Shown here piece after piece: positions 7,472-37,245 of a stretch of 64,000 bases of DNA (positions are counted from its first letter, which is position 1; every line of letters begins with the position of its first letter). Position numbers and translations under genes: made by a program. The notes below the pieces were generated by a model that saw only the letters and a program-made list of their open reading frames with translations, had not been told where the DNA came from and searched no databases. The DNA is from Dehalococcoidia bacterium (GTDB lineage Bacteria; Chloroflexota; Dehalococcoidia; Lucifugimonadales; UBA3495). The DNA is taken from NCBI GenBank assembly GCA_022825745.1, contig JAJDWF010000085.1, positions 1,783 through 65,782 of the forward strand, written 5' to 3'.

Positions 7472-8398
7472 TCACTCGTCACGGCCGGCAATGCTCCCCG
7501 GATAGAACTTCAGCCAGGCCGAGCGGTAGGCGATCATCGTAGGCAGTTCCCGGCCGCCGTCGGTTGTCCTCGCCCTTATCGCCCCCGTCCCGGCATCCCG
7601 CCACACGGCAACCGGAGTATCACCAACGACGCCGGCAACCTCGCCGTCAATCACACTATCGTACGGCCACGCCGCGGCCGAGTCGCCAATCACCACACCC
7701 ACCACGTGGTTCGCGCCCGGTCGGTTGCCCCGAAACGCCGGGGAAGGTTCGCTCACCACCAGCGCCGTAGTCTCCGGGTGCGACGCTGCCCATTTGCCCC
7801 AGGTGGTGAGTTGCGACGGAACCAGCGGCAGCGTCGCGCCGGCCTCCGTGCCGGTGAGCGCCATGCCCAGGGGCTGCGACCAAATGCTGCCGGTCGCGTG
7901 GTCGAACCACGTCATGGCTCCTTTGTACAGCGCGCCCTGGTTTCCGAACACGGCCGCAGTTCCGTTGACGCGCCTCTCATGCACCAACGCGGCGTAGCAT
8001 CGCGGACACCAACTGACCAGCACGGGAACGCCGCCCACCACGTCGTTCACCAGTTCACGGGAGAACAGGATGCCCGTCGGGTAAGCGCGGGCGTCGCCGT
8101 TGATGGACAGCCCGATTACTAATTCGTCGTGGGGCAGGTCGGCGTCCGCTGCCGGTACGAACCGGGGCGCGTAGATCGGCGGTATGTCGTCGGGCAGCAG
8201 CAGTTGCACAAGTTCGGCGTCGGAGAACCCCGCCGCGGCCGGCCCTCGCGGGCCAATCGTCTCGTCGTATGCGCCGGCAAATTCCCCGGCGTAGCCGGCC
8301 GGCGACGGCGGTTCGGACGCGCTGCATCCGCCCACGGCGGACAGCAGGATGGCGGCCGCTGTGATGACGATGAGAACCGGCAAAGCCCGGTCAGTCAC
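7472..8398 (-). CDS. DUF3179 domain-containing lipoprotein
   Basis: Matches the DUF3179 signature (ARAYP..IL...E.VND.VGG.PV.VSWCPRC....V..R.V.G....FG..G.LY......D..TGS.WSQ). Lipobox VGGC. The GTG start overlaps the znuB-like stop by 8 nt. Confidence 0.8.
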   Translation of the reverse strand: MTDRALPVLIVITAAAILLSAVGGCSASEPPSPAGYAGEFAGAYDETIGPRGPAAAGFSDAELVQLLLPDDIPPIYAPRFVPAADADLPHDELVIGLSINGDARAYPTGILFSRELVNDVVGGVPVLVSWCPRCYAALVHERRVNGTAAVFGNQGALYKGAMTWFDHATGSIWSQPLGMALTGTEAGATLPLVPSQLTTWGKWAASHPETTALVVSEPSPAFRGNRPGANHVVGVVIGDSAAAWPYDSVIDGEVAGVVGDTPVAVWRDAGTGAIRARTTDGGRELPTMIAYRSAWLKFYPGSIAGRDE

Positions 8399-9266
8399 CC
8401 GCCGCGACCGTTTCGGGTTGCGGTTGGCGGTGCCGCAGGCGGGAGAACAGGGCCCAACGCCGCGGAGACGCCACCACTGTAATCAGGAGCATGGCTACCG
8501 ACACCACGACTATGGCCGGGCCGGTGGGCAGGTCGAGGTGGAACGACAGGTACAGCCCGATTACGATGGCGGCCAGGGCGACGCCCACGGTAGCAAACAT
8601 CATGCTGGCCAGGCGACGCGCCAGCAGGCTGCCCGTTACCGCCGGCACCACCAGCAGCGACATCACCATCACGTTGCCCACGGTTTTCAGCGCGGCTACC
8701 GTGGTCAACGCCACCAGCAGCGGCAGCAGGTACTCTAGGAAGCGTACCGGCAGGCCCGACGCTTCCGCGACGGCGGAGTCATACGTGGTGAAAACCAGCT
8801 CTTTGTAGAGCAGCCACACCACCAGGACCACGCCGCCGGCCAACAGCCCCACCGACAGCACGTCGGTCCACGAGGCCCCCAGCACATTGCCGAACAGGAT
8901 GCTGAGCAAATCGCCGGCGTAATTTTCGCTTGCGTTGATCAGGATTACGCCAACCGCAAAGCCGCCGGCGAAGAGCACGCCTATCACCGCGTCCAGTCGG
9001 ATTCCGGCCCGTCTGGATACCAGCGAAATGCCCAGCGATGCCGGCACCGCCCAGATTAGCGCGCCCAGGAATATGTTTGCCCCGAACAGGAACGCCACCG
9101 CCATTCCGGTCAGGGCTGAGTGCGCTATCGCGTCTCCCAGGAACGCCATGCCCCGCAGTACCACGAACGTGCCCACCACTCCGCAGGCGGTCGCGGCCAG
9201 GGCCGACACCAGCAGCGCGCGCTGCATGAAACCGTACTGCATGGGTTCGATAATCAGGTCGAGCAT
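8391..9266 (-). CDS. znuB: Metal ABC transporter permease (ABC-3 family, ZnuB-like)
   Basis: 291 aa, about 8 TM segments. Motifs are typical of ZnuB/MntB permeases (FMQRALL, GDAIAHSALTG, LLVVPAVTG). Confidence 0.8.
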   Translation of the reverse strand: MLDLIIEPMQYGFMQRALLVSALAATACGVVGTFVVLRGMAFLGDAIAHSALTGMAVAFLFGANIFLGALIWAVPASLGISLVSRRAGIRLDAVIGVLFAGGFAVGVILINASENYAGDLLSILFGNVLGASWTDVLSVGLLAGGVVLVVWLLYKELVFTTYDSAVAEASGLPVRFLEYLLPLLVALTTVAALKTVGNVMVMSLLVVPAVTGSLLARRLASMMFATVGVALAAIVIGLYLSFHLDLPTGPAIVVVSVAMLLITVVASPRRWALFSRLRHRQPQPETVAAGD

Positions 9267-9273
9267 GGTTTAT

Positions 9274-9873
9274 TTATTGGAGGCGTAAGCGCATCGCAAC
9301 GGGCTGGATGACGCCGCAGGCGACCGGCGAGTCGGCGATTTCGCGCTCGCCGTGGCCCTGCGGGCCGGCGTGGATTATGACAGATGAACCGTCCTCGTCA
9401 AATAGCGAGTGCGGCTTGCCGGCCTGCAACGTGAGGCCGTCGGTGACGAAATCGGCGCGTGCCGAGCCGTCGGCGTGGGCGTAGATGTTGGGCAGGTCGC
9501 CGCTGTGAAAGCCGTAAACCTCACCCCGTTTCCAGTTCGGATGCACAAACCCGCGTCGCGTTTCGCGAGGCGAAAAATGGCCGCCGGCCGCGCTGAAGTC
9601 GGGAGTGCATGCCCCCACGGCGTGAACGATTACCGCATGCCCGCCCGGCGTCAGACCTTCCACGTCCACCGCAAACAACAGGTGCTCGGCGCTTTCATGC
9701 AGCGTTACCGTTCCCAGGGCATCCCCGGACGGAGACATCATTACGGCCTCGGCAATTAATTCCTCATCCGACACCGCCGGCTGGCCGGAGCGCAACGCTA
9801 TCCAGACCAGTCCGGCGATAACCGCGACCGCGATGACGATGATCAGTAAAGCTGGTTGTGCCCTCATCCTCAT
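9274..9873 (-). CDS. Cu/Zn superoxide dismutase-like (SodC family) protein, membrane-anchored, with a degenerate Cu site
   Basis: Contains the SodC motifs LTPGGHAVIVHAVGAC, AAGGHFSP, FHSGDLPN, VIIHAG and VACGVIQ. An N-terminal TM helix is present. The first Cu-ligand His is replaced by Ile, and the Arg three residues before the C-terminal Cys is replaced by Pro. Confidence 0.8.
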   Translation of the reverse strand: MRMRAQPALLIIVIAVAVIAGLVWIALRSGQPAVSDEELIAEAVMMSPSGDALGTVTLHESAEHLLFAVDVEGLTPGGHAVIVHAVGACTPDFSAAGGHFSPRETRRGFVHPNWKRGEVYGFHSGDLPNIYAHADGSARADFVTDGLTLQAGKPHSLFDEDGSSVIIHAGPQGHGEREIADSPVACGVIQPVAMRLRLQ

Positions 9874-9921: not shown

Positions 9922-12312
9922 TTATTGGAGCAATTGCGCCAGTGCGTCGGCGTTGGCGCGCATCATGCTGATGTAGTCGGGATGGTCAGCGTCCGGCAGA
10001 GACCGGACGTTCCCCACCGGAATGCCGGCGTCCCGGGCTACCTGGTCCAGGGCATCCTGCGAAAACTGGGGCTCAGCGAAAACGCCGGGCAGTCCCCGGT
10101 CGCCCACCAGGTCCAGCACGCGCACGATGTCGTCGGGCGACACGGCGCCGGCGTGGCTGCCGACGAAGGCCATCACTTCCATGTCGTAACGGGTCCCGAA
10201 GTAGCCGAAAGCGTCGTGGAAGGTAACCATCACCCGGTGGTCCTGCGGAATGCCGGCCAGCGCGTCGGCGATGTAGGCATCCAGCGCCTCCAGCTCGGCG
10301 ATGTAGGCGGCGGCGTTGTCCAGGTACACGCCGGCGTTGTCCGGGTCGGCGGCGACCAAGCCGGTGGCAATCTGGTTGACGTAGTGAACCACCAGGCGCG
10401 GATTGAGCCAGAAATGCGGGTCGCCTTCGCCGTGTTCATGGCCGTGTTCGTCGTGGCCCTCTTCGGGGTGGTCGCCTTCATCCAGAATCCCTACGAAAGC
10501 GATTTTCGTCGGGGTGCCGTCAACGTCCCAGTGTTCCACCACTTCCAGGTCGTGCGGGTCCAGGGCAAGTACCTCTCCGGCGCCGGAGTCGGTGATGAAA
10601 ATGAGGCCGGGAGCGGTGGCGATGTGGGGCCGCGCCCAGAATCCCGGATCAATGTCGTCGGACAAAACCTCATTCGTCGAGGCCAGCAAGTCGGCGTCAT
10701 GGCCGTCGTACAATCGGATTTCGCCGTCGCTCATGACCACGATGAGATATTCGCCATCGTAGCTGAACGCTACCTGTATCGGCCGCAGGGCGTCGGTGGC
10801 GGCGATGAACTGCTCCATCTCGCCCTCTTCGGGTTCCACGATGTACAGGCCGACAGCCGAACCCAGGGCAAGGAAATGGTCCAGGCCCTCATAGCCCCAA
10901 ACGGAGGTCAACCGGAAGTCGTCCGGGGACCCGTCCGGGGCGGCGATGAATTCGTCGTGGTATTCGCCGTCGTGGGCTTCAACCACCAGGACGCCGCCGG
11001 TGCAGCCGAACACGGCCATGTGACCGTTGCTGGCGTCGCCGTGCAGGTCCGGGCAGCCTTCCGCGGAGTGCAGCACGTTGCCGTCCAGGTCGCGGATTTC
11101 CGCGCCGATGGGTCGCCTGTATTCCGTCGGGTTTTGCAGATAATTCGGGTGTTGGATTGAAACCGCGAACAGGTCGCCTTCCAGGGGAACCGCCGCGCCG
11201 TGCTGGGCGCCGACGTTCATCATCACGGGCGCGAAGTCATCGCCCTCGTGTTCCAGTTCATGCTCGTTGATCAGCGCGATGTCGCCGGAACCGTCATAGA
11301 AGATCGTCGCCCATTCACCGCCCACGTACAGATGCACGGGCCGGTCTCCGCTGAGGTCGGTGGGCAGGCGGTGCACGTGTGCCTCCACCAGGTCGAAGTG
11401 GTCTCCGTGCTCTTCCAGGTAGATTCCGCCGTCAAAGATGTGCGCGGTGTTGGCGTCCGAGGACACGGCGATGGCGTAACGCCCGGATCCGCTGGGGTAG
11501 ATGCGGCCGGCTCGCGAACCCAGGTCAAATTCGTCCTGGTGGACCTCGCCGGACTCCAGGTCGATCACCGACAAAGCTCCGGTCTCCCCGTCTCCAACCA
11601 GGAGGCGGCCCATGGCCTCGCCTTCATGTCCTTCTCCTTCCATCGCCTCTTCGCCGTGGCCGTGGCCATCTTCGGGGAAGGGCAGTTCCACCAGTTCCTG
11701 CGGTTCCAGCCCTTCCGATGCGATGACCATGACGGCGTCCGCAGACGCGGCGTTGTCGATCAATTCTTCCACCTGCGCGGACAGGCCACCGCCGTTGCTG
11801 ACGATCACCGTCGCTTCCGAGATGCGGACGCTGTCCTGCGGAGTGCTGTTCCAGGTGTGCGCGTCGCTCCCGATGGGAACTAGGCTATGCACCGAAACGC
11901 GGTCTCCACCCACCTGGGCCACCAGGTCCGCCAGCAGGGCGTTGCCGGCGATCACGTCGATGGGTTCGGCTTCCGGTTGAGCCATCTGCCCCGAGCCGCT
12001 CTGTCCTGACCCGGTCTGCCCCGAAGCCGTCTGCCCGGAGGCTGTCTGTCCCGAGGCTTGGCTGGCCGACGCCTGGCCCGCGTTCGACGACGCGGGAGCG
12101 CTGGTCGCGGACGGGCTGGACGCGGCGCTGGCGGGCGCCGAACCTGCGGGGGCGGACGATTCGGCCGGAGGGAGCGCCGACTCGTCGCCACCGCAGGCGG
12201 TCAAGAAGAGCGCGGCTGCCAGCATGGCGCCGAAAAAGGTCGCCAGCAGCAGCCGGCGGGCCGGCGCGGACGATCTGGCAGCAGCGGAAAGAGGGTTGGA
12301 CCGGTTGTTCAT
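9922..12312 (-). CDS. znuA: Zn/Mn-family metal ABC substrate-binding lipoprotein (ZnuA/AztC-like) with a large beta-propeller insertion in the His-rich loop
   Basis: N-lobe (IDVIAGNALLADLV...SLVP.GSDAHTW) and C-lobe (DPHFWLNP...TFHDAFGYF...EPQFS) of a cluster A-I SBP are split by about 400 aa flanked by His-rich runs. Probable ATG at 12312 (GGAG 9 nt upstream). Lipobox LTAC-GG. Confidence 0.8.
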   Translation of the reverse strand: MNNRSNPLSAAARSSAPARRLLLATFFGAMLAAALFLTACGGDESALPPAESSAPAGSAPASAASSPSATSAPASSNAGQASASQASGQTASGQTASGQTGSGQSGSGQMAQPEAEPIDVIAGNALLADLVAQVGGDRVSVHSLVPIGSDAHTWNSTPQDSVRISEATVIVSNGGGLSAQVEELIDNAASADAVMVIASEGLEPQELVELPFPEDGHGHGEEAMEGEGHEGEAMGRLLVGDGETGALSVIDLESGEVHQDEFDLGSRAGRIYPSGSGRYAIAVSSDANTAHIFDGGIYLEEHGDHFDLVEAHVHRLPTDLSGDRPVHLYVGGEWATIFYDGSGDIALINEHELEHEGDDFAPVMMNVGAQHGAAVPLEGDLFAVSIQHPNYLQNPTEYRRPIGAEIRDLDGNVLHSAEGCPDLHGDASNGHMAVFGCTGGVLVVEAHDGEYHDEFIAAPDGSPDDFRLTSVWGYEGLDHFLALGSAVGLYIVEPEEGEMEQFIAATDALRPIQVAFSYDGEYLIVVMSDGEIRLYDGHDADLLASTNEVLSDDIDPGFWARPHIATAPGLIFITDSGAGEVLALDPHDLEVVEHWDVDGTPTKIAFVGILDEGDHPEEGHDEHGHEHGEGDPHFWLNPRLVVHYVNQIATGLVAADPDNAGVYLDNAAAYIAELEALDAYIADALAGIPQDHRVMVTFHDAFGYFGTRYDMEVMAFVGSHAGAVSPDDIVRVLDLVGDRGLPGVFAEPQFSQDALDQVARDAGIPVGNVRSLPDADHPDYISMMRANADALAQLLQ

Positions 12313-12354
12313 TGTGTTTGACTCCATGGATGCAAAATTGCGTCCTGCTATCAA

Positions 12355-12380
12355 TATGCGGTATCAATAAGATACGCATA
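12355..12380. promoter_or_regulatory. Candidate metalloregulator (Zur) operator upstream of the znuA-like gene
   Basis: 26-nt near-perfect palindrome TATGCGGTATC-AATAA-GATACGCATA. It is flanked by further TATCAAT copies at 12349-12355 and 12392-12398. Confidence 0.45.
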
Positions 12381-12442
12381 CCGATAGACAGTATCAATTA
12401 AGCGCAAAGTTGAGAGAGCGGCTGGACGAATTGGGTTTGGAT

Positions 12443-12907
12443 TCAGTCAGCGCACTCGCCGCAGCGGCCGTAAACTTCCAGCCAATGCCCGCTCATGCGA
12501 AAGCCGGACCGGTCGGCGGCGGCGCGAAGTATGTCCTCGACGTCACAGTCTATCAGGTCGGCGGACGCGCCGCATATGGCGCAGAGCATGTGATGATGAT
12601 GGCCCTGGTGGCTCAACTGGTAACGGAGTTCCCGGTCTTCCAGCAGCACCCGGCATACCTGGTCGGTTTCCACCAGCAAGCGAAGCCCTCGATACACCGT
12701 GGCCCGGCCAACGCAGGGCAGTGCGGCGCACAGATCCTCAGCCGTAAAGGGACGTCCCTGGGCCGCGACGGCGCTGATGACCAGGCGCCGGGGCTCAGTA
12801 TCCCGGTAACCCTGCCTGGCCAACTGGGCAACTATGTCGTCCACCACGGCAGAGGAGATCGGGGCGGGATGGTCGTGACCTCTGTGTTTGAAATTAGTGG
12901 CAACCAA
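12443..12907 (-). CDS. zur: Fur-family transcriptional regulator (probably Zur)
   Basis: 154 aa. Winged-helix region (GRATVYRGLRLL), an HHHH run, and two CxxC pairs (CAIC, CGEC). It lies directly upstream of the zinc-uptake genes. Confidence 0.8.
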   Translation of the reverse strand: MVATNFKHRGHDHPAPISSAVVDDIVAQLARQGYRDTEPRRLVISAVAAQGRPFTAEDLCAALPCVGRATVYRGLRLLVETDQVCRVLLEDRELRYQLSHQGHHHHMLCAICGASADLIDCDVEDILRAAADRSGFRMSGHWLEVYGRCGECAD

Positions 12908-12924
12908 GTGATACTCCGTATCAC
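12908..12924. promoter_or_regulatory. Perfect 7-3-7 palindrome abutting the zur start codon
   Basis: GTGATAC-TCC-GTATCAC. On the coding strand it contains the GGAG RBS. It shares the GATAC/GTATC half-sites with the znuA-upstream palindrome. Confidence 0.45.
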
Positions 12925-13011
12925 GGACATTAACACCTGCTAGTTACCCTGTCAACCGGTTGCCATCGTTCGGCTCTCCGCTCCTGACGCGGTTGCGGTT
13001 AACCCCGGACG

Positions 13012-14289
13012 CTAATCGTCGGCAGCAATGAACAGGTGCTCGACGTGGTGGTTTTCCTGCTCGCAGTCGGATGCGGAACCCTCCAGTTGCAGGGTCAGGT
13101 GCGTCAGGCCGAAATTCTTGGCGATACTCCGCAATCGCACCAGCAATTCGTCCTTGTCCGGCACGGCCGCGTGATCAATCAGCACGTGGGCGGTGAACGC
13201 GTTGTACCCGGAAGTGATGGTCCAGGCATGCACGTCGTGCACCAGCGTTACCCCGGGTACGTCCTCCATGTCGCTGCACAGCTGGATGATGTCCACGTTT
13301 TTCGGCGTCCCTTCCAGCAGCACCTTGAACACGCTCATGAACAGGCCCCACGACACCTTGAGAATCAGCAGGCCGATCAGGATGCTCAGGATGGGGTCCA
13401 CAATCGTCCAGTTGAAGTCCGGCGCGAACCGGGGACCGAATACGATCAGCGCCCCGGAGAGGATCACGCCCACGGAACCGAACAGGTCGGCCATGACGTG
13501 CTGGAACGCCCCCTCCACGTTCAGACTTTCCCCGGCGGCGCGATGCAGCACATACGCCGCGGCAATGTTCACCAGCAGGCCCGCGATCCCGACGCCGAAC
13601 AGCAATGGCCCTTCAATATGCGGGGGGTCAAAGAAACGGTGATAAGCCTCGAAGAAGATCCAGCCCGCAATCAGCCACAGGCTCAGCGTGTTCACCAGGG
13701 CGGCCAGCACCTCGGTTCGATGAAAACCGAACGTGGAACCGGCGGACGCGGGTCGGGCGGACAGCCACATGGCAAAAAGCGCCAGCACGATGGCCGCAGC
13801 GTCCGTGAGCATGTGCGCCGCGTCGGCCAGCAGGGCCAGGCTGCCGGACAGGATCCCGCCCACCACTTCAACAAACATGAACGTCCCAATCAGGGACAGG
13901 GCGATGATCAGGCTGCGTTTGCTGGCGCTCCGCAAGTCGTGGGCATGGTCGTGGTCGTGCCCGGAGTGATCATGCCCGGAGTGATCGTGTCCCTCATGGC
14001 CGTGCCCGGCATGGTCGTGCTCATCGTGGTCATGCCCGGAATGGTCGTGTTCCTCATGGCCATGCGCGGCGTGGCCGTGCCCCGAGTGATCGTGTTCCTC
14101 ATGGCCGTGGCCGGAATGGTCATGCCCGGAGTGATCGTGCTCAGCGTGATCGTGCTCAGCGTGATCGTGCCCAGCATGGTCATGCTCATCGTGGCCGGCG
14201 TGGCCGTGCTCATCGTGGTCATGCTCGGCATGATCGTGCCCCGCATGTTCCTCATGATGGCCGTGTTCGTGCGAGTGTGGCGTGGTCAA
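13012..14289 (-). CDS. Cation diffusion facilitator (CzcD/ZitB-type) exporter with ~118-aa His/Asp/Glu-rich N-terminal extension
   Basis: CDF motifs SLALLADAAHMLTD (TM2) and HVMADLFGS (TM5), plus a C-terminal cytoplasmic domain. TTG start with AAGGAAG RBS. Confidence 0.9.
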   Translation of the reverse strand: MTTPHSHEHGHHEEHAGHDHAEHDHDEHGHAGHDEHDHAGHDHAEHDHAEHDHSGHDHSGHGHEEHDHSGHGHAAHGHEEHDHSGHDHDEHDHAGHGHEGHDHSGHDHSGHDHDHAHDLRSASKRSLIIALSLIGTFMFVEVVGGILSGSLALLADAAHMLTDAAAIVLALFAMWLSARPASAGSTFGFHRTEVLAALVNTLSLWLIAGWIFFEAYHRFFDPPHIEGPLLFGVGIAGLLVNIAAAYVLHRAAGESLNVEGAFQHVMADLFGSVGVILSGALIVFGPRFAPDFNWTIVDPILSILIGLLILKVSWGLFMSVFKVLLEGTPKNVDIIQLCSDMEDVPGVTLVHDVHAWTITSGYNAFTAHVLIDHAAVPDKDELLVRLRSIAKNFGLTHLTLQLEGSASDCEQENHHVEHLFIAADD

Positions 14290-14310
14290 AACCGTAGCTT
14301 CCTTATCGAA

Positions 14311-14348
14311 AAGGGCGGGGCCTCATAGACACGGGAGGCTCCGCCCTT
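14311..14348 (-). terminator. GC-rich hairpin (partial terminator or attenuator) between the HCH-repeat gene and the CDF gene
   Basis: AAGGGCGGGGCC...GGCTCCGCCCTT stem. On the minus strand it is followed by a short T run (CTTTTCG), then the CDF RBS. Confidence 0.45.
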
Positions 14349-14397
14349 TGCATGGCGCTGGGAGTTCTGAATCTTCGTCGCGTCCTCGACGCTCCAC

Positions 14398-14637
14398 TTA
14401 GGCGGCGTGGGCGACGTGGTGGGGGTCCTCCGCAGCCGCGCAGTGCTCGCCGCCGTGGGTGTGGCAGTGTTCCGCGCCATGCTCGTCCAGTTCTTCCGCC
14501 CCGCCGATCGCCAGGCAGGAAGCGTCGCCGTGGGTGTGGCAATGACCGGCCCCGTGCTCGTGGCAATGCTGCCCGCCGTGGTCGTGGCAGTGCTCGCCAG
14601 TATGCTGGTGGCAGTGGTCGTCTTGATGAGTGGTCAT
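14398..14637 (-). CDS. Small cytoplasmic His/Cys-rich HCHxH-repeat protein (putative metal-binding or storage protein)
   Basis: 79 aa with 21 His and 7 Cys. There are five HCH(Q/D/E/T)H motifs at about 8-aa spacing. GGAGGG RBS 4 nt before the ATG, GC3-rich codons, and a hairpin downstream. Confidence 0.7.
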   Translation of the reverse strand: MTTHQDDHCHQHTGEHCHDHGGQHCHEHGAGHCHTHGDASCLAIGGAEELDEHGAEHCHTHGGEHCAAAEDPHHVAHAA

Positions 14638-14660
14638 AAAATCCCTCCGATTTTGTAACT

Positions 14661-14671
14661 ACAGTATCAAT
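14661..14671. promoter_or_regulatory. Operator-like 11-mer shared with the znuA upstream region
   Basis: ACAGTATCAAT occurs here and at 12388-12398 (exact). On the minus strand it overlaps a putative -10 (TATTGA), 17 nt after TTGACT. Confidence 0.4.
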
Positions 14672-14794
14672 AACACGCCTTAATGATAAAGTCAAGCATC
14701 CGGCAGCACACCGGATGAGCCTGCCCGGCGGCTTGACGCTGCGGCGCGCCGGCGTTTATAGTCGGCAGTACCAACCGACCGGGGAGTGTGTGCC

Positions 14795-15037
14795 ATGCCT
14801 ATCTATGAGTATTCGTGTCCCACCTGTGGGCACAGGTTTGAAAAGTTGCAGTCCATGTCCGCCACCGGCGCCGATTGCCCGCACTGTGAGCAGCCGGCCA
14901 AGCGGGCCATCTCCGTGTTCGCCGCGGTGAGCAAGGGCGACGGATTCGCCAGCGACATGGCGGATCTGGGCGGCTCTCCCATGCCGGCCCCAATGGGCGG
15001 CGGAGGATGCGGCGGGTTCTGCGGCTGCGGCCACTGA
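14795..15037 (+). CDS. FmdB-family zinc-ribbon protein
   Basis: The MPIYEYSCPTCGHRFE...CPHC core is the FmdB/CxxC-CxxC signature. The tail is Gly/Cys-rich (GGGGCGGFCGCGH). ATG at 14795 with GGGGAG upstream. Confidence 0.8.
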   Translation: MPIYEYSCPTCGHRFEKLQSMSATGADCPHCEQPAKRAISVFAAVSKGDGFASDMADLGGSPMPAPMGGGGCGGFCGCGH

Positions 15038-32338: not shown

Positions 32339-35300
32339 CTACGGCGAGCCGCAGGTCGCCACCCCTCCCGGCTTGTCCGCCACGCCATCCAGCCAGGCCG
32401 TGAACCCCTCGTCGTCCGGCGCGCACAGCCCCGTATTGGCGATGGCCAGCCGTTCCAGGTCCGCCAGATTGGTGAACCCCGACGGCAACGCCCCGCTCAA
32501 CCCGGTGTTGTCGTGCAGCGACAGCCGAGTCAACCCGCTCAGGTTGCCCAGGCTCGCCGGCAGCGACCCGCTCAACTGGTTCCGCGCCAACCCGATGATG
32601 CTCAGGTTCGACAGGTTGCCCAGCTCCGTCGGTATCGACCCGGTGAGGCTGTTGCGATTGGCGGCGAAGCGGCGGAGGTTACTCAAATTGCCCAGCTCAG
32701 CAGGGATGGATCCGTTCAAATTGTTGCGGTCCAGCGCCAAATCCTGCAAGCTCGTCATGCTTCCCATGCTGGCCGGTATCGACCCGGTGAGGCCGCCATC
32801 GCCGTCCGCGTCAACCTGGCGATGCAGATAGAGCACTTCCAGTTTCTTCAGGTTGCCCAGGCTGGCCGGCAACGGGCCGGTCAGTTGGTTGTTCTGAAGC
32901 TCCAACCGCTCCAGATTGGTCAGGTTGCCCAACCCATCGGGTAGTGGGCCGGTGAACTCGTTTCCGCCCAGCGTAGCTATCCAAAGCTCGGTCAGGTTGC
33001 CCATGCTGGTCGGAAGCGGACCCTTCAGGTCGTTGTCGTATAGGTACAGTTGGCGCAGTTCGGTGAGGTTTCCGAATGACTCGGGTATGGTTCCGTTCAG
33101 GTTTCTTTGGTGGAGGGTCAGTCGTGTCACCCGTCCCAGGTGGTTGGTGGTAACTCCGGCCCACTCGTGCAGCGGCTTGTCGCTGCCCCAGTTATTGCTG
33201 GAGGTCCAGTTAGGGCCGTTGGTAGCGTTGTAGAACTCCATCAGCACCGGGCGGTCGCGGTCGTCCGGGCAGTCGTAGATTTGGACCTTGGTCAGGCCGT
33301 CCAGCCATTCCTGAATTGCCGCATCGTCGGGCGCACAAACCTGGGTATAAACGGTGTACAAGTGAGTCATGCTGGACATACCCGTCATGCTCAAAGGCAA
33401 AGGACCGCTCAAGCCGCGGTTCTCACGGATCATGAGCACCTGGAGTTCGGACAGGTCGCTGATTTCCGCAGGCAGGGAGCCTTGCAGGTTATTGTTCGGC
33501 AGCTCCAGGGCAATCACCCGCCCGTCGTCATCGGTAGTGACGCCGCCCCACTTGCCCAGCGGCTCCGCGCTCAGCCAGTTGTGGTTGTAAGTCCAGTTGG
33601 CTCCGCCGGTGGCATTGTAGAGGGCAGTCAGCGCGTCCCGATCCGGGTTGTACCCCGCCTCCAGCTTGGCCCGGTTGCTGCGTTGGGTCTCAACGCCGTC
33701 AAGCAGCGTTGCCACCTGGTATGTATAGGTCTGGCCTGTCGTCAAACCCTTGTCGGTATATGAGGTCGAACTGCCGTCGTAGCCGGTCATCTTCTCACCG
33801 TCGCGGTAAAGGGCGTAGGTGATCGGGGCTTCCGGCCGGTGCGGAATGGTCAGCGCGTTCCAGCTCAGTTCTATCTGAGTGCCGGAGGCTGTCGCCGTCA
33901 GGCGAGACTGGTAGCCGAACTCTTGCCAGGTGGCGGTGTTGTCGCCGTTGAAGTCTGCTCGCAGCGCGGGGTACTGCTGGTTAGTGCCAAAATCCCAGGG
34001 GTTGTCGGGGGTGGAGTCGCCGTCCAGGTCCACGTTCCAGGCGGAATAGATGCCGGTGTAGCCCCGGGGCGTCTGAAGCTCGCCGGTGGTCTTGGCGGTA
34101 GCGCCGTCGGTATGCCCGGAGGTGTCGCTGTCATGGTAGCTGTCGGTTATAGTCCCATCCACATTCACGCCCACCAATCCGCCGCCGCCACCTTGACCTC
34201 TCGTCGCGCCAGTGGCGTAACTGGTGCCTATAGTTCCTTCGTTGATGCCCACCAGACCACCGGTCGCGCCCTGGCCTGTAGCGTAGCTGGCGATGATGGT
34301 CCCTTGGTTCCGGCCCACCAATCCGCCGGACAACCCCGAGGCCGTAACCGTTCCGGTGGCGTAGCTGGCGCTTATTGTCGCGCCGTTGTTGCGGCCGACC
34401 AGGCCGCCACTGCTGGACTGGCCGTTGACCGCTCCGGTAGCATAACTTCCGATTATGGAACTGCCGGGTTCAGTGTAGCCGACCAGGCCGCCGGTATCTT
34501 CTTTGCCGCTGACCGCTCCGGTAGCGTAGCTGTCGAAAATCCTGCCGGAATGCTCATTTTCGCCGGTTAAGCCACCGGCATGCCTTTGGCCATTGACCGT
34601 AACTTCGGCATAACTGCCGCTTATTATGTGCCAGTTCTCACCGGTCAAACCACCGGTGTCGTAGGTGCCAGCAACCTTGCCGGTAACGTAACAGTTGCTG
34701 ATTGTGCCGTTGCTCCAACCCGCCAGGCCGCCTACGTATTTCCCGCCTTTTACATCCACTTGAGCCAGCCCCAGGTTCCTGATTTCACCACCAATCCCCA
34801 CCTCAGCAAAGAGCCCCTGATGGGGGAAGCTGAAGAAGAAACCCGGCCACACTTCGATTTCACTGCGGTCGATGAACAAGTTGGCGATGGTGCGACGGTT
34901 GCCTTCAAAGGTGCCGGTGAAAGAGTCGGCTTGAACACCAATCCGGTGCCAGCCCTGGCCCTCGTTCCAGTAGGTAGCGTCGGCAGCGGTAATCTCCCCG
35001 TCGCGGTTCTCGTCAAAGTCCAGGTTGGCCGTCAGCTCGTAGCCGGTGCAGGTAGTTCCGGCGGGGCAAACCGCGCCATCCTCTGCCACCGGAAACGCGA
35101 CGGCGTAGTCCGCCTCATTCCCGGCGGCCGGCGTCCCGTCGCCGTCCAGGTCCCAACGGACGGCGTTGAGCTTGGCCAGGCTGTCAATTTCAATCAGGCC
35201 GTCGCCGTCGGCGTCGTGGTTGTTGGGCGCGCTTTCGGGTGTTGCCGCCGCCCGGTTGCTGCGCCGGGCTTCAACGCTGTTGAGCAGCGTCGCCACGTGA

Positions 35301-37003
35301 TAGGTGTAGGTTTGTCCAACCGTCAGCCCCGTGTCGGTATAGGAGGTCGAACTGCCGTCGTAGCCAGCCACCTTCTCCCCGTTCCGGTAGAGGGCATAGG
35401 CAATGCTCGGCGGACTTGTCCAGTGAGATGCGTCCGCCGGGTTCCAGCGCAGAAACACGCGCGGGCCGGCGACCCGCGCCGTCACGATGGGCCGCTCCCG
35501 CACCTGGTAGCCCAACTCCTGCCAGGTGGCGGTGCCGTCGCCGTTGAAGTCGGCTTTCAGTACAGGGTACTGGTCTGCCGTCCCGAAGTGCCACGGATCG
35601 TCGCCGCCGGTGCTATCGTCGCCGTCCCCATCGGCGTTGTCCAGGTCCAGGTTCCATCCGGCATATATGCCGGTGTAGCCGGTGGGAGCGGTCAATTCGG
35701 CAGTGCTTTTGCCTCCCGCGCGGACACGGCCGAAGACGTCGCTGTCATAGTAATATCCGCTGATCGTTCTCCCACTGTTATTGCCCACAACGCCGCCGAC
35801 GTGACTGTTGCCGCTGACCGTGCCCACAGCGTAGCTGCCCGCGATCGTTCCTTCGATCGTATCTCCCAACGCAGTATAAAACTCGTTATCACCCACGAGA
35901 CCGCCGACATCGCTATTGCCGCTGACCGTGCTCATGGCGTAGCTGGACCTTATCGTTCCGTCGTTGGCGCCCACCAGGCCGCCCACATCTTCATCGCCGC
36001 TCACCGAGCCGGTAGCGTAGCTGCGGATTATCACGCCCTTGCGTTCACCGCCGAATTCTGACGCGTTGAAGCCTACCAGTCCGCCGACGTCATATTGGCC
36101 AACAACTTTGCCGGTGGAGTAGCTGTCGGTTATGGTGCCGGAAATTTCGTTCTCGCCCACCAGGCCGCCGACGTGAAGTCCTCCGGTGACATCAACCGCC
36201 GCCCAGCAACGGGTTGCCGAACCGAAAGTCTCACCAATCAGTCCGCCGGTATCATAAGTGCCAACAACTTTGCCGGTGGCCCAGGCGGCGGTAATGCTGG
36301 TTTCCACTTGGCTCCAACCGGCCAGTCCACCGGCGTACCTGTCTGCCGTAACGTCCACGCCCGGCAGCCCCAGGTTCCTCACCTCCGCGCCGTTGCCCAA
36401 CACGCTGAACAGCCCCTGGGTATTTTTGGTTGAGCGGTCAGCAAACAGGTTGGCGATGGTGTGGCCGTTGCCATCGAAGGTAACGTGAAATAGACGGGCG
36501 TCGCGTGGGGAAGTACTCCCATCGTTGAGGGCGGTGACGCCTTGCCTGCCGATAGGAAGCCAGCCGGCGCCGTTGTTCCAGTACGCGCTGTCGGCAGCGG
36601 TAATCTCCCCGTCGCGGTTCTCGTCAAAGTCCAGGTTGGCCGTCAGTTCGTAGCCGGCGCATTCGGTTTCGGCGGGGCATACCGAGCCATCCTCGGCTAC
36701 CGGGAACGCGGCGGAGTAGTCGGCGTCGTTGCTGGCGTTGTCTGCCGCGCCGTTGTCGTCCAGGTCCCAGCGGACGGCGTTGAGCTGGGCCAGGCTGTCG
36801 ATTTCGATCAGGCCGTCGCCATCAGTATCATAGTGGGCGGGCGGAGTTTGCGCTTCGGCGGGTGGCGCGGCGACGAACAGGCTCAGCAACACCAGCACCA
36901 GCACGGCGGCCAGGGGCAGCAGGGGCCATCTTATGATGCCGCTCCCTCCGAGTTGCAGGGTGCGAAAACGCGCTATGCGGCGTCCTTTGTTGCTATTCAA
37001 CAT
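32339..37003 (-). CDS. Giant secreted/surface protein: two GLUG-repeat modules with FN3-like domains plus two plant-type LRR modules
   Basis: ATG at 37003 (GAGGGAGGGG RBS), signal/anchor helix, DxDGDGxIE Ca-binding-like motifs, 7+8 GLUG repeats (V/TGGLVG), two FN3-like domains and about 14 24-residue LRRs. Confidence 0.85.
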   Translation of the reverse strand: MLNSNKGRRIARFRTLQLGGSGIIRWPLLPLAAVLVLVLLSLFVAAPPAEAQTPPAHYDTDGDGLIEIDSLAQLNAVRWDLDDNGAADNASNDADYSAAFPVAEDGSVCPAETECAGYELTANLDFDENRDGEITAADSAYWNNGAGWLPIGRQGVTALNDGSTSPRDARLFHVTFDGNGHTIANLFADRSTKNTQGLFSVLGNGAEVRNLGLPGVDVTADRYAGGLAGWSQVETSITAAWATGKVVGTYDTGGLIGETFGSATRCWAAVDVTGGLHVGGLVGENEISGTITDSYSTGKVVGQYDVGGLVGFNASEFGGERKGVIIRSYATGSVSGDEDVGGLVGANDGTIRSSYAMSTVSGNSDVGGLVGDNEFYTALGDTIEGTIAGSYAVGTVSGNSHVGGVVGNNSGRTISGYYYDSDVFGRVRAGGKSTAELTAPTGYTGIYAGWNLDLDNADGDGDDSTGGDDPWHFGTADQYPVLKADFNGDGTATWQELGYQVRERPIVTARVAGPRVFLRWNPADASHWTSPPSIAYALYRNGEKVAGYDGSSTSYTDTGLTVGQTYTYHVATLLNSVEARRSNRAAATPESAPNNHDADGDGLIEIDSLAKLNAVRWDLDGDGTPAAGNEADYAVAFPVAEDGAVCPAGTTCTGYELTANLDFDENRDGEITAADATYWNEGQGWHRIGVQADSFTGTFEGNRRTIANLFIDRSEIEVWPGFFFSFPHQGLFAEVGIGGEIRNLGLAQVDVKGGKYVGGLAGWSNGTISNCYVTGKVAGTYDTGGLTGENWHIISGSYAEVTVNGQRHAGGLTGENEHSGRIFDSYATGAVSGKEDTGGLVGYTEPGSSIIGSYATGAVNGQSSSGGLVGRNNGATISASYATGTVTASGLSGGLVGRNQGTIIASYATGQGATGGLVGINEGTIGTSYATGATRGQGGGGGLVGVNVDGTITDSYHDSDTSGHTDGATAKTTGELQTPRGYTGIYSAWNVDLDGDSTPDNPWDFGTNQQYPALRADFNGDNTATWQEFGYQSRLTATASGTQIELSWNALTIPHRPEAPITYALYRDGEKMTGYDGSSTSYTDKGLTTGQTYTYQVATLLDGVETQRSNRAKLEAGYNPDRDALTALYNATGGANWTYNHNWLSAEPLGKWGGVTTDDDGRVIALELPNNNLQGSLPAEISDLSELQVLMIRENRGLSGPLPLSMTGMSSMTHLYTVYTQVCAPDDAAIQEWLDGLTKVQIYDCPDDRDRPVLMEFYNATNGPNWTSSNNWGSDKPLHEWAGVTTNHLGRVTRLTLHQRNLNGTIPESFGNLTELRQLYLYDNDLKGPLPTSMGNLTELWIATLGGNEFTGPLPDGLGNLTNLERLELQNNQLTGPLPASLGNLKKLEVLYLHRQVDADGDGGLTGSIPASMGSMTSLQDLALDRNNLNGSIPAELGNLSNLRRFAANRNSLTGSIPTELGNLSNLSIIGLARNQLSGSLPASLGNLSGLTRLSLHDNTGLSGALPSGFTNLADLERLAIANTGLCAPDDEGFTAWLDGVADKPGGVATCGSP

Positions 37004-37245
37004 TGTCTGCCCCTCCCTCAGACACAATCCAGTCCACCCAACGGCGGATGTGCACGCCGAAAATGTCAAGTACGGTGACCGCCGCCAATTTTACCACCCA
37101 AAACCCCCAAATCCAGCATATATCGACATTAATTCCCAAAAACCCCGGTGCCCTTCCGGTGTCCGAACAGGGCGGGAGCCAAGCAAAGAAAAAGGGCGGT
37201 CAGGAAAACCCTGAACGCCCCGGCGCTACCTGGTCGGCGAAGTCG

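Follow-up and report, generated by a model that had tools for sequence, protein, structure and literature searches.

A conserved HCHxH-repeat protein encoded beside a cation diffusion facilitator exporter in Dehalococcoidia and its possible role as a metal buffer

What is a protein of 79 amino acids, packed with histidine and cysteine and encoded immediately upstream of a metal exporter, likely to be doing in a bacterium? The question is raised by a small gene in a 64,000-nucleotide stretch of DNA from a Dehalococcoidia bacterium (assembly GCA_022825745.1, contig JAJDWF010000085.1, positions 1,783 to 65,782), a stretch referred to here as the window. The product of the gene is built around a repeat of the form HCHxH, and the next gene codes for a cation diffusion facilitator (CDF) exporter. 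Judged by its pattern of substitutions, the small open reading frame (ORF) is a genuine, conserved and so far unnamed gene. What its product does can be read less firmly, and the reading we favor is that of a cytoplasmic metal buffer.

Except in a few models, the buffering and routing of zinc-type metals in the bacterial cytoplasm is little understood, and bacterial metallothioneins are rare. To our knowledge, the CDF proteins are the most widespread family of zinc efflux transporters, and no soluble partner is known for any of these exporters.

The small gene and its relatives

The small protein contains 21 histidines (27%), 7 cysteines, 14 aspartates and glutamates, and no lysine or arginine. 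Its translation is identical to the string given in the original prediction, which had left out the strand; the gene lies on the minus strand (Table 1). Units of HCHxH start at residues 8, 16, 24, 32, and 57, and an additional HC stands at residue 65. Five units on an 8-residue period had been claimed, and all five are there, but the period is strict only for the first four. In order, the protein is made of four N-terminal HCHxHxGx units, a core (HGDxxCxAIGGxExxDEHG), the segment HCHxHGGEHCA, and the tail DPHHVAHAA. The repeat is not a by-product of composition, since four or more HCHxH units appeared in none of 200,000 composition-preserving shuffles, and three units in just 0.03% of them. 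The longest run of histidines is two, there is no CC pair and no CxxC, and a 24-bp tandem repeat is still detectable in the DNA. A six-frame translation of the window contained no further copies of the HCHxH motif.

No hydrophobic stretch was found in the protein, the highest Kyte–Doolittle mean over 15 residues being only 0.41. It can thus be said to have no signal peptide, as had been predicted, and no transmembrane (TM) helix, and a protein without a hydrophobic segment should be cytoplasmic. The signals for expression are also those described in the original prediction: a GGAGGG ribosome-binding site 5 nt before the ATG, a downstream hairpin followed by TTTT, and codons typical of the genome, with a GC content at third positions (GC3) of 0.81, compared to 0.79 in the adjoining CDF gene.

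The search for relatives that had been proposed, together with a check of their surroundings, was carried out at the DNA level on one genome per species of the GTDB. It yielded 25 orthologous loci, all of them in metagenome-assembled genomes of Dehalococcoidia/Chloroflexota, and a few copies of the gene are also present in metagenomes. Few homologues come out of protein searches, because gene callers mostly miss the ORF. The GTDB orthologues that were tested are not present in the protein collection, an exhaustive phmmer search against 1.84 billion representatives gave 6 matches, 1 of them spurious, and profile searches contributed just fragments and frameshifted copies. The spurious match, P0005, is a eukaryotic protein of 1671 aa in which AQPCQTPG is repeated, and it was rejected as a low-complexity false positive. 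In plasmid sequences, tblastn found no match to the small protein. The source of one locus (SAR202 bin16) and of the MKWU metagenome matches is the marine sponge Aplysina aerophoba, a sponge origin that is established for these traced members only.

The 25 orthologues can be aligned with the window protein from one end to the other. In an alignment of 10 diverse members, all 7 cysteines and 17 histidines are invariant. The family consensus runs MTTH-(HxH)n, four HCHxHxGx units, HGDxxCxAIGGxExxDEHG, xxHCHxHGxEHCA, and xxxDPHHxxHAA. The number of N-terminal HCHxH units is normally four and ranges from 1 to 4 among members, and the second module is absent in some variants.

The strongest evidence for a real gene comes from the way in which the sequence varies. 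The pairwise ratio of nonsynonymous to synonymous substitution rates (dN/dS) is 0.04–0.25 across the orthologues, with dS running from 0.3 to saturation. Over 75 ungapped codon columns, the first, second, and third codon positions vary in 24, 25, and 69 columns, and both synonymous codons are in use at 17 of 20 invariant histidine columns and at 5 of 7 invariant cysteine columns. Two long ORFs overlap the gene in antisense (14352–14639 and 14407–14658, both on the plus strand), and they are Val/Met-rich or Arg-rich mirrors of the histidine codons. Because purifying selection and third-position variation are both seen in the frame of the small gene, we can rule out that it is a shadow ORF or a leader acting purely in cis, in keeping with the earlier claim of a real gene.

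Two relatives deserve a separate mention. In the closest GTDB orthologue (locus L013, 7905–8120), codon 15 is an in-frame TAG in place of a glutamate codon, and the remaining frame is perfectly conserved. The stop may stem from an error in sequencing or assembly, or from a nonsense mutation that arose very recently; the arm of the CDF protein at the same locus contains a run of N. The other is P0006, a 158-aa metagenome protein and weak homologue (E = 2e-4), whose C-terminal half can be aligned to the family. Most of its cysteines and histidines are swapped for Ser, Asp, or Glu (HSGEHGEEHSDAEGDADSEAIEGSEELDQNGEEDCDADGEEHSASEADPPAHH), which may mark a relative that no longer has its ligands, or P0006 may be an artifact of biased composition.

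The exporter, the hairpin, and the promoter

The claim that the small gene lies immediately 5′ of a CDF exporter gene is borne out: 108 nt separate its stop from the start of that gene in the window. The exporter matches Pfam Cation_efflux (1.9e-45) and NCBIfam CDF (5e-83), and its best-matching model is ZitB, at 242 bits and below the cut-off. Zinc-type CDFs are marked by HxxxD/HxxxD transport-site motifs, and the translation has HMLTD in TM2 and HVMAD in TM5. In front of the membrane domain is an N-terminal arm of ~115 aa (about 13939–14289) with 47 histidines and no cysteine. The arm is encoded by tandem DNA repeats of 15, 45, and 60 bp, and its length among the orthologues goes from ~20 to ~160 aa. 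Automatic gene calls on identical contigs shorten the exporter to 288 aa from 425 aa and place spurious antisense ORFs there.

The CDF gene is directly 3′ of the small gene in about 20 of the 25 genomes. This pairing is found in three unrelated neighborhoods, namely a Fur/ZnuA/superoxide dismutase (SOD) cluster (the window, L011, and L013), a GlnRS/lactamase_B setting (L001), and a main clade (L016–L027) in which the order is MFS, small gene, CDF, rhodanese. The spacer measures 91–120 nt in all linked loci, and no promoter-like site was found between the two genes. The small gene would be the first of a two-gene operon with the exporter, and the two would usually be co-transcribed.

In the spacer, a GC-rich hairpin of 12–17 bp stands ~25–35 nt 5′ of the CDF start in 20 of 20 CDF-linked loci, and the stop of the small gene comes ~50 nt before it. 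That the stem sequences change between clades while the hairpin persists speaks for conservation of the structure itself, which resembles a partial terminator or an element that stabilizes the mRNA. An Rfam scan of the whole window, with a permissive scan of 12300–15000, found no riboswitch (e.g., czcD/NiCo) or other real RNA family. Since there is no promoter-like site between the genes, transcription probably passes through the hairpin to reach the CDF gene, and more of the small protein than of the exporter is probably made.

However, the small gene can be found without its neighbor. Within loci of 20 kb, three cases (L021, L032, and L035) lack the adjacent CDF gene altogether, a fourth (L026) retains a remnant of ~30 codons of it, and in a fifth (L028) it is frameshifted. 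The small gene is intact in all five, with every ligand conserved.

Upstream of the small gene, the putative promoter carries the 10-mer TTATTGATAC over its −10 region, a site that a consensus promoter scanner did not call. With at most 1 mismatch, three copies of this 10-mer are present in the 64-kb window, compared to 0.52 expected. The other two (at 12361 and 12391) are in the promoter of a znuA-like gene, where they cover the −35 and a position just 3′ of the −10, around the presumed transcription start. The small-gene arrangement recurs in the closest orthologous locus, L013; the znuA-like boxes are conserved in L011 and L013, while the box is absent from the small-gene promoter of L011. 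Between the CDF gene and the znuA-like gene, and directly 3′ of the former, lies a gene for a Fur-family regulator. Its start is overlapped by a perfect palindrome, downstream of a TTGACA-17-TAATGT promoter, which is likely an autoregulatory operator.

An operator-like motif in the small-gene promoter had been predicted. What stands is a 10-mer common to the znuA-like promoter; what does not is a complete operator, since the full TGATAC-N3-GTATCA had no match at ≤3 mismatches in the small-gene promoter, and the half-site that is present could serve as an operator or be no more than a portion of the −10 element. Because the box is common to a zinc-uptake promoter next to a Zur-like gene, zinc-status control of the small gene is likely, and control by the Zur-like protein is plausible in the window clade. 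Half-sites of the type TGATAC/GTATCA recur 5′ of the small gene in other clades, as GTATC-N8-GTATCA upstream of the −35. In the main clade (L016–L027 and L035), the small gene has a conserved GTATCGCAACCnAGTATCAG ~60–85 nt 5′ of its ATG region, at about −45 to −70 from the promoter. It stands just 5′ of a conserved TTGACAC −35 / AACAAT −10, an activator-like position, and carries the GTATCA half-site of the Fur-gene palindrome.

Table 1. Positions in the window of the small gene, its control elements, and the adjoining genes
Feature	Position	Strand	Details
HCHxH-repeat His/Cys protein gene	14398..14637	minus	79 aa; ATG 14637-14635, TAA 14400-14398
Shine-Dalgarno GGAGGG	14643..14648	minus	5 nt 5′ of ATG; GGAGG/AAGGAGG at the equivalent spot in orthologues
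Putative small-gene promoter	14664..14695	minus	−35 TTGACT 14690-14695, 17-nt spacer, TATTGA within TTATTGATAC 14664-14673
GC-rich intercistronic hairpin, then TTTT	about 14309..14348	minus	stems GGGCGG/AGCCTC ... GAGGC/CCGCCC; fold z = −2.8
CDF exporter gene, ZitB/CzcD-like	13012..14289	minus	425 aa, TTG start, ribosome-binding site AAGGAAG 14298-14304
Palindrome GTGATAC-GGA-GTATCAC (perfect)	12907-12923		overlaps start of Fur-family gene; conserved in L011 (about 12190-12205)
Fur-family regulator gene, Zur-like by context	12443..12907	minus	Pfam FUR 9e-19; NCBIfam equivalog models all below cut-off
Promoter of znuA/aztC-like gene	12355..12400	minus	two (T/A)A/TATTGATAC boxes, 12361-12370 and 12391-12400; same 10-mer as small-gene promoter

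What the protein may do

The explanation that we favor, and to which we give a moderate probability, is that the small protein is a self-sufficient cytoplasmic buffer for Zn, Cd, or Co (and perhaps Ni) that normally works alongside the exporter and may hand metal to it. We infer metal binding from the conserved pattern of ligands and the gene context; the identity of the metal, the hand-off to the pump, and the regulation are read in the same conditional way. The acidic polypeptide would probably fold only on binding metal. A β-strand of HCHxH turns the imidazoles of its three histidines to one face and the thiolate of its cysteine to the opposite one. Each unit may form such a short strand, with glycine-containing turns between units. 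Together with the C-terminal module (HGDxxC...DEHG..HCHxHGxEHC...DPHHxxHAA), the repeats would offer 28 invariant or near-invariant soft or borderline ligands, enough for several sites of the Zn(II) type or for Cd, Co, or Ni. The conserved hairpin would end or stabilize most transcripts after the small gene, leaving the binder in excess over the pump. Surplus cytoplasmic metal could then be buffered or sequestered, as by a metallothionein or Hpn, and possibly passed on to the long histidine-rich arm of the exporter, with no dependence on that particular exporter. In the window clade, the small gene would probably be under the control of zinc status.

Several points weigh against this explanation. 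An AlphaFold2 model built from a shallow alignment does place a β-strand on each HCHxH unit, but at a pLDDT of 47, which is low confidence, and the geometry of strands and faces is only a suggestion. As for the metal, a TTH- N-terminus left after removal of Met is a Cu(II)/Ni(II) motif of the amino-terminal (ATCUN) type, and the conserved N-terminus of the small protein would be such a site. Also, the HCH tripeptide is best known as the copper ligand set of multicopper oxidases. The variation between 1 and 4 N-terminal units suits a device whose capacity can change and gives no specific mechanism. Finally, the shared box overlaps the −10, as expected for a repressor, and classical Zur control would turn the operon on in zinc limitation, which fits poorly with a detoxifying buffer and an exporter.

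One could consider instead that the small protein is dedicated to the CDF exporter as its metallochaperone or as a modulator of its activity, which delivers metal to its histidine-rich arm or gates it and has little value alone. It would then correspond, for a CDF, to CopZ with CopA, PacL1 with CtpC, or MntS with MntP. Tight operon-like linkage in three neighborhoods, with spacer length and hairpin conserved, is what such a partnership would leave behind, the unusually long cytoplasmic arm could be the acceptor, and both proteins begin MTT(H/E/P)H. Partners encoded beside metal exporters are documented, PacL1 with CtpC being an example (PMC9374683). What speaks for the autonomous buffer is that the small gene has stayed intact where the adjacent CDF gene was lost or has decayed, and we rank it above an obligate chaperone for this reason. 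In addition, the hairpin implies a binder in stoichiometric excess over the pump, and repeat number does not obviously track arm length (in L001 a short binder goes with a long arm; in L010 both are short). We also know of no cytosolic chaperone for a bacterial CDF, which counts against this alternative, and we regard it as unlikely. In its most ambitious form, the protein would be the first dedicated cytoplasmic CDF metallochaperone, a zinc-type counterpart of CopZ whose HCHxH strands load the arm and which has a new metal-dependent β-meander fold with a histidine face and a cysteine face; this proposal is doubtful to the same degree. Less probable again is a protein of zinc limitation within a Zur regulon, repressed by the Fur-family protein at high zinc and switched on in scarcity. 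The small protein would be a reservoir or allocator of zinc, and through the CDF exporter zinc would reach enzymes outside the cytoplasm, for example the Cu/Zn SOD of the cluster. The identity of the promoter box with the znuA-like boxes supports this, as do the Fur-gene palindrome, built from the same half-site, and the Cu/Zn SOD gene inside the uptake operon. However, the linkage to Fur and ZnuA is confined to the window clade, where the small-gene promoter of L011 has no box, the main-clade sites lie upstream of the −35 in an activator-like position, the small-gene promoter holds a half-site only, and exporters of the ZitB/CzcD type are normally induced by metal excess.

Two further explanations deny the peptide a role in the cytoplasm, and both are highly improbable. 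In one, the ORF is a cis-regulatory leader whose His/Cys-codon-rich translation, with the terminator-like hairpin, controls read-through into the CDF gene, the peptide being functionless. The hairpin and its T-tract do stand just 27 nt before the ribosome-binding region of the CDF start, and there is no separate promoter. However, all 79 residues are conserved under purifying selection with both synonymous codons at invariant histidines and cysteines, a ribosome on the ORF would be unable to cover a hairpin so far beyond the stop codon, and the gene is kept where no CDF gene follows. Slightly less credible still is that there is no gene at all, only a shadow or chance ORF in GC-rich DNA, or that the gene encodes the precursor of a secreted, ribosomally synthesized and post-translationally modified metal-binding peptide (RiPP). 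The overlapping antisense ORFs and the absence of the tested orthologues from the protein collection would agree with a chance ORF, but the coding signature is found in the small-gene frame only, and the shadow reading is refuted by dN/dS and the codon-position pattern. A RiPP is countered by the lack of any signal or leader sequence and of conserved modification enzymes nearby, the CDF gene being the only conserved neighbor.

The autonomous buffer can also be compared with systems already described. The earlier statement that HCHxH belongs to no described family holds up. Searches of Pfam and NCBIfam with the window protein and 10 members at E ≤ 10 gave no real match, a PDB profile search gave nothing real, and a literature search found no biology paper with an HCHxH-type motif string and nothing joining SAR202 and metallothionein. 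A Furin-like match (Pfam/NCBIfam, E = 0.86) was dismissed as chance and a Fab light chain in the PDB (E = 0.037) as noise. By sequence, the small protein belongs to none of the Hpn, metallothionein, SmbP, HMA, or PacL families. Its family is new, but the kind to which this family belongs, the small cytoplasmic His/Cys-rich metal binders, is known, and the “possible new class” of the original prediction was overstated to that extent.

A likeness to Hpn, SmbP, and metallothioneins had also been suggested, and it is one of size, composition, and, for Hpn and SmtA, function by analogy. Hpn and Hpn-2, the nickel storage proteins of Helicobacter pylori, are likewise cytoplasmic and acidic, with ~60–80 aa, more than 25% histidine, and few cysteines. 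Metal sequestration or buffering is the presumed task in both cases, and both N-termini are possibly of the ATCUN type after Met removal. However, Hpn gave no BLASTP alignment to the small protein at E ≤ 100, stems from another phylum, shows runs of poly-His and paired cysteines (EEGCC) where the small protein has HCHxH on an 8-residue period, and has no paired CDF exporter. The metallothioneins SmtA/BmtA (PF02069) and MymT are also small cytoplasmic Cys/His binders that buffer Zn and Cd (SmtA) or Cu (MymT), with genes often in metal-responsive loci. SmtA/BmtA are dominated by cysteine (about 9 Cys and 2 His, in an M4 cluster), unlike the repetitive 21 His to 7 Cys seen here. None of 10 family members matched PF02069 Metallothio_Pro at E ≤ 10, nor did the window protein at E ≤ 0.1, and hhalign against SmtA gave a probability of 0.1%. 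SmbP is periplasmic and has a signal peptide, whereas the small protein has no hydrophobic N-terminus and no Lys or Arg.

In gene order, the closest parallels are CopZ–CopA and PacL1–CtpC, in which the gene for a small metal binder also lies immediately 5′ of that for an exporter with a cytoplasmic metal-binding extension. These are partners of P1B-ATPases and not of CDFs, and the HCHxH gene, unlike them, persists without a pump gene. CopZ/Atx1 (PF00403) has the ferredoxin-like HMA fold and MxCxxC, while the small protein has no HMA match and no CxxC. PacL1, the partner protein encoded beside CtpC, is described as membrane-anchored (PMC9374683). Proteins of the PacL type have an N-terminal TM helix, and the small protein has neither a TM helix nor a DUF1490 match. 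Low-complexity His(/Cys) stretches also serve as metal reservoirs or relays in SlyD, HypB, UreE, CooJ, and the COG0523 GTPases, but there they are appendages of folded enzymes or chaperones, whereas the HCHxH protein is free-standing, its repeats keep a fixed, conserved register, and a module outside the repeats is conserved at its C-terminus. In the His-Cys-His of multicopper oxidases, the cysteine is a ligand of one metal center and the flanking histidines are ligands of others on the opposite side, an arrangement that sets a structural precedent for two metal sites served by a single HCH strand. Those are large cupredoxin enzymes with a single HCHxxxHxxxxM, and the small protein has no homology to them and no Pfam match.

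The repeat is compact and strongly conserved (His3Cys), and it is amenable to quick tests of stoichiometry, affinity, metal-induced folding, and transfer to the arm. It may also serve as a small metal-binding tag or in bioremediation. Within the collections searched, the gene was found only in Dehalococcoidia/Chloroflexota genomes, which would make it a lineage-specific adaptation of SAR202/Dehalococcoidia. Because it is largely missed by gene callers, metagenomes probably contain more such proteins than have been counted.

The zinc-uptake cluster and other neighbors

In the window clade, the CDF gene is followed by the Fur-family, znuA/aztC-like, Cu/Zn SOD, and ABC-3 permease genes. The znuA/aztC-like gene (9922–12354, minus strand) codes for an 810-aa, lipoprotein-like zinc solute-binding protein in which the ZnuA/AztC halves are split by a domain of ~370 aa that resembles the AztD β-propeller. 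NCBIfam AztD matches it at 4e-36 over residues 253–621, and AztC at 1.4e-55 in two stretches. This apparent fusion of AztC and AztD by insertion is kept, at about 67% identity, in L011 and L013. The AztD of Paracoccus is a protein of its own, a periplasmic chaperone that serves AztC with zinc, and the sole fusion mentioned in the paper on the AztD structure is reportedly ZinT-ZnuA (AdcA). The Cu/Zn SOD gene (9274–9873, minus strand) lies between the gene for the zinc-binding protein and that for the ABC-3 permease (8391–9266), apparently within a zinc-uptake operon, an arrangement kept in L013 and in the strain-level contigs L003–L005.

On the other side of the small gene, and divergent from it, a gene at 14786–15037 (plus strand) codes for an FmdB-type zinc-ribbon protein with a Gly/Cys-rich C-terminal tail (GGGGCGGFCGCGH). 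It adjoins the small gene in strain-level contigs only, not in other species. Farther away, at 32339–37069 (minus strand), the window encodes a protein of 1576 aa that combines GLUG motifs with leucine-rich repeats, a eukaryote-like repeat architecture associated with sponge symbionts.

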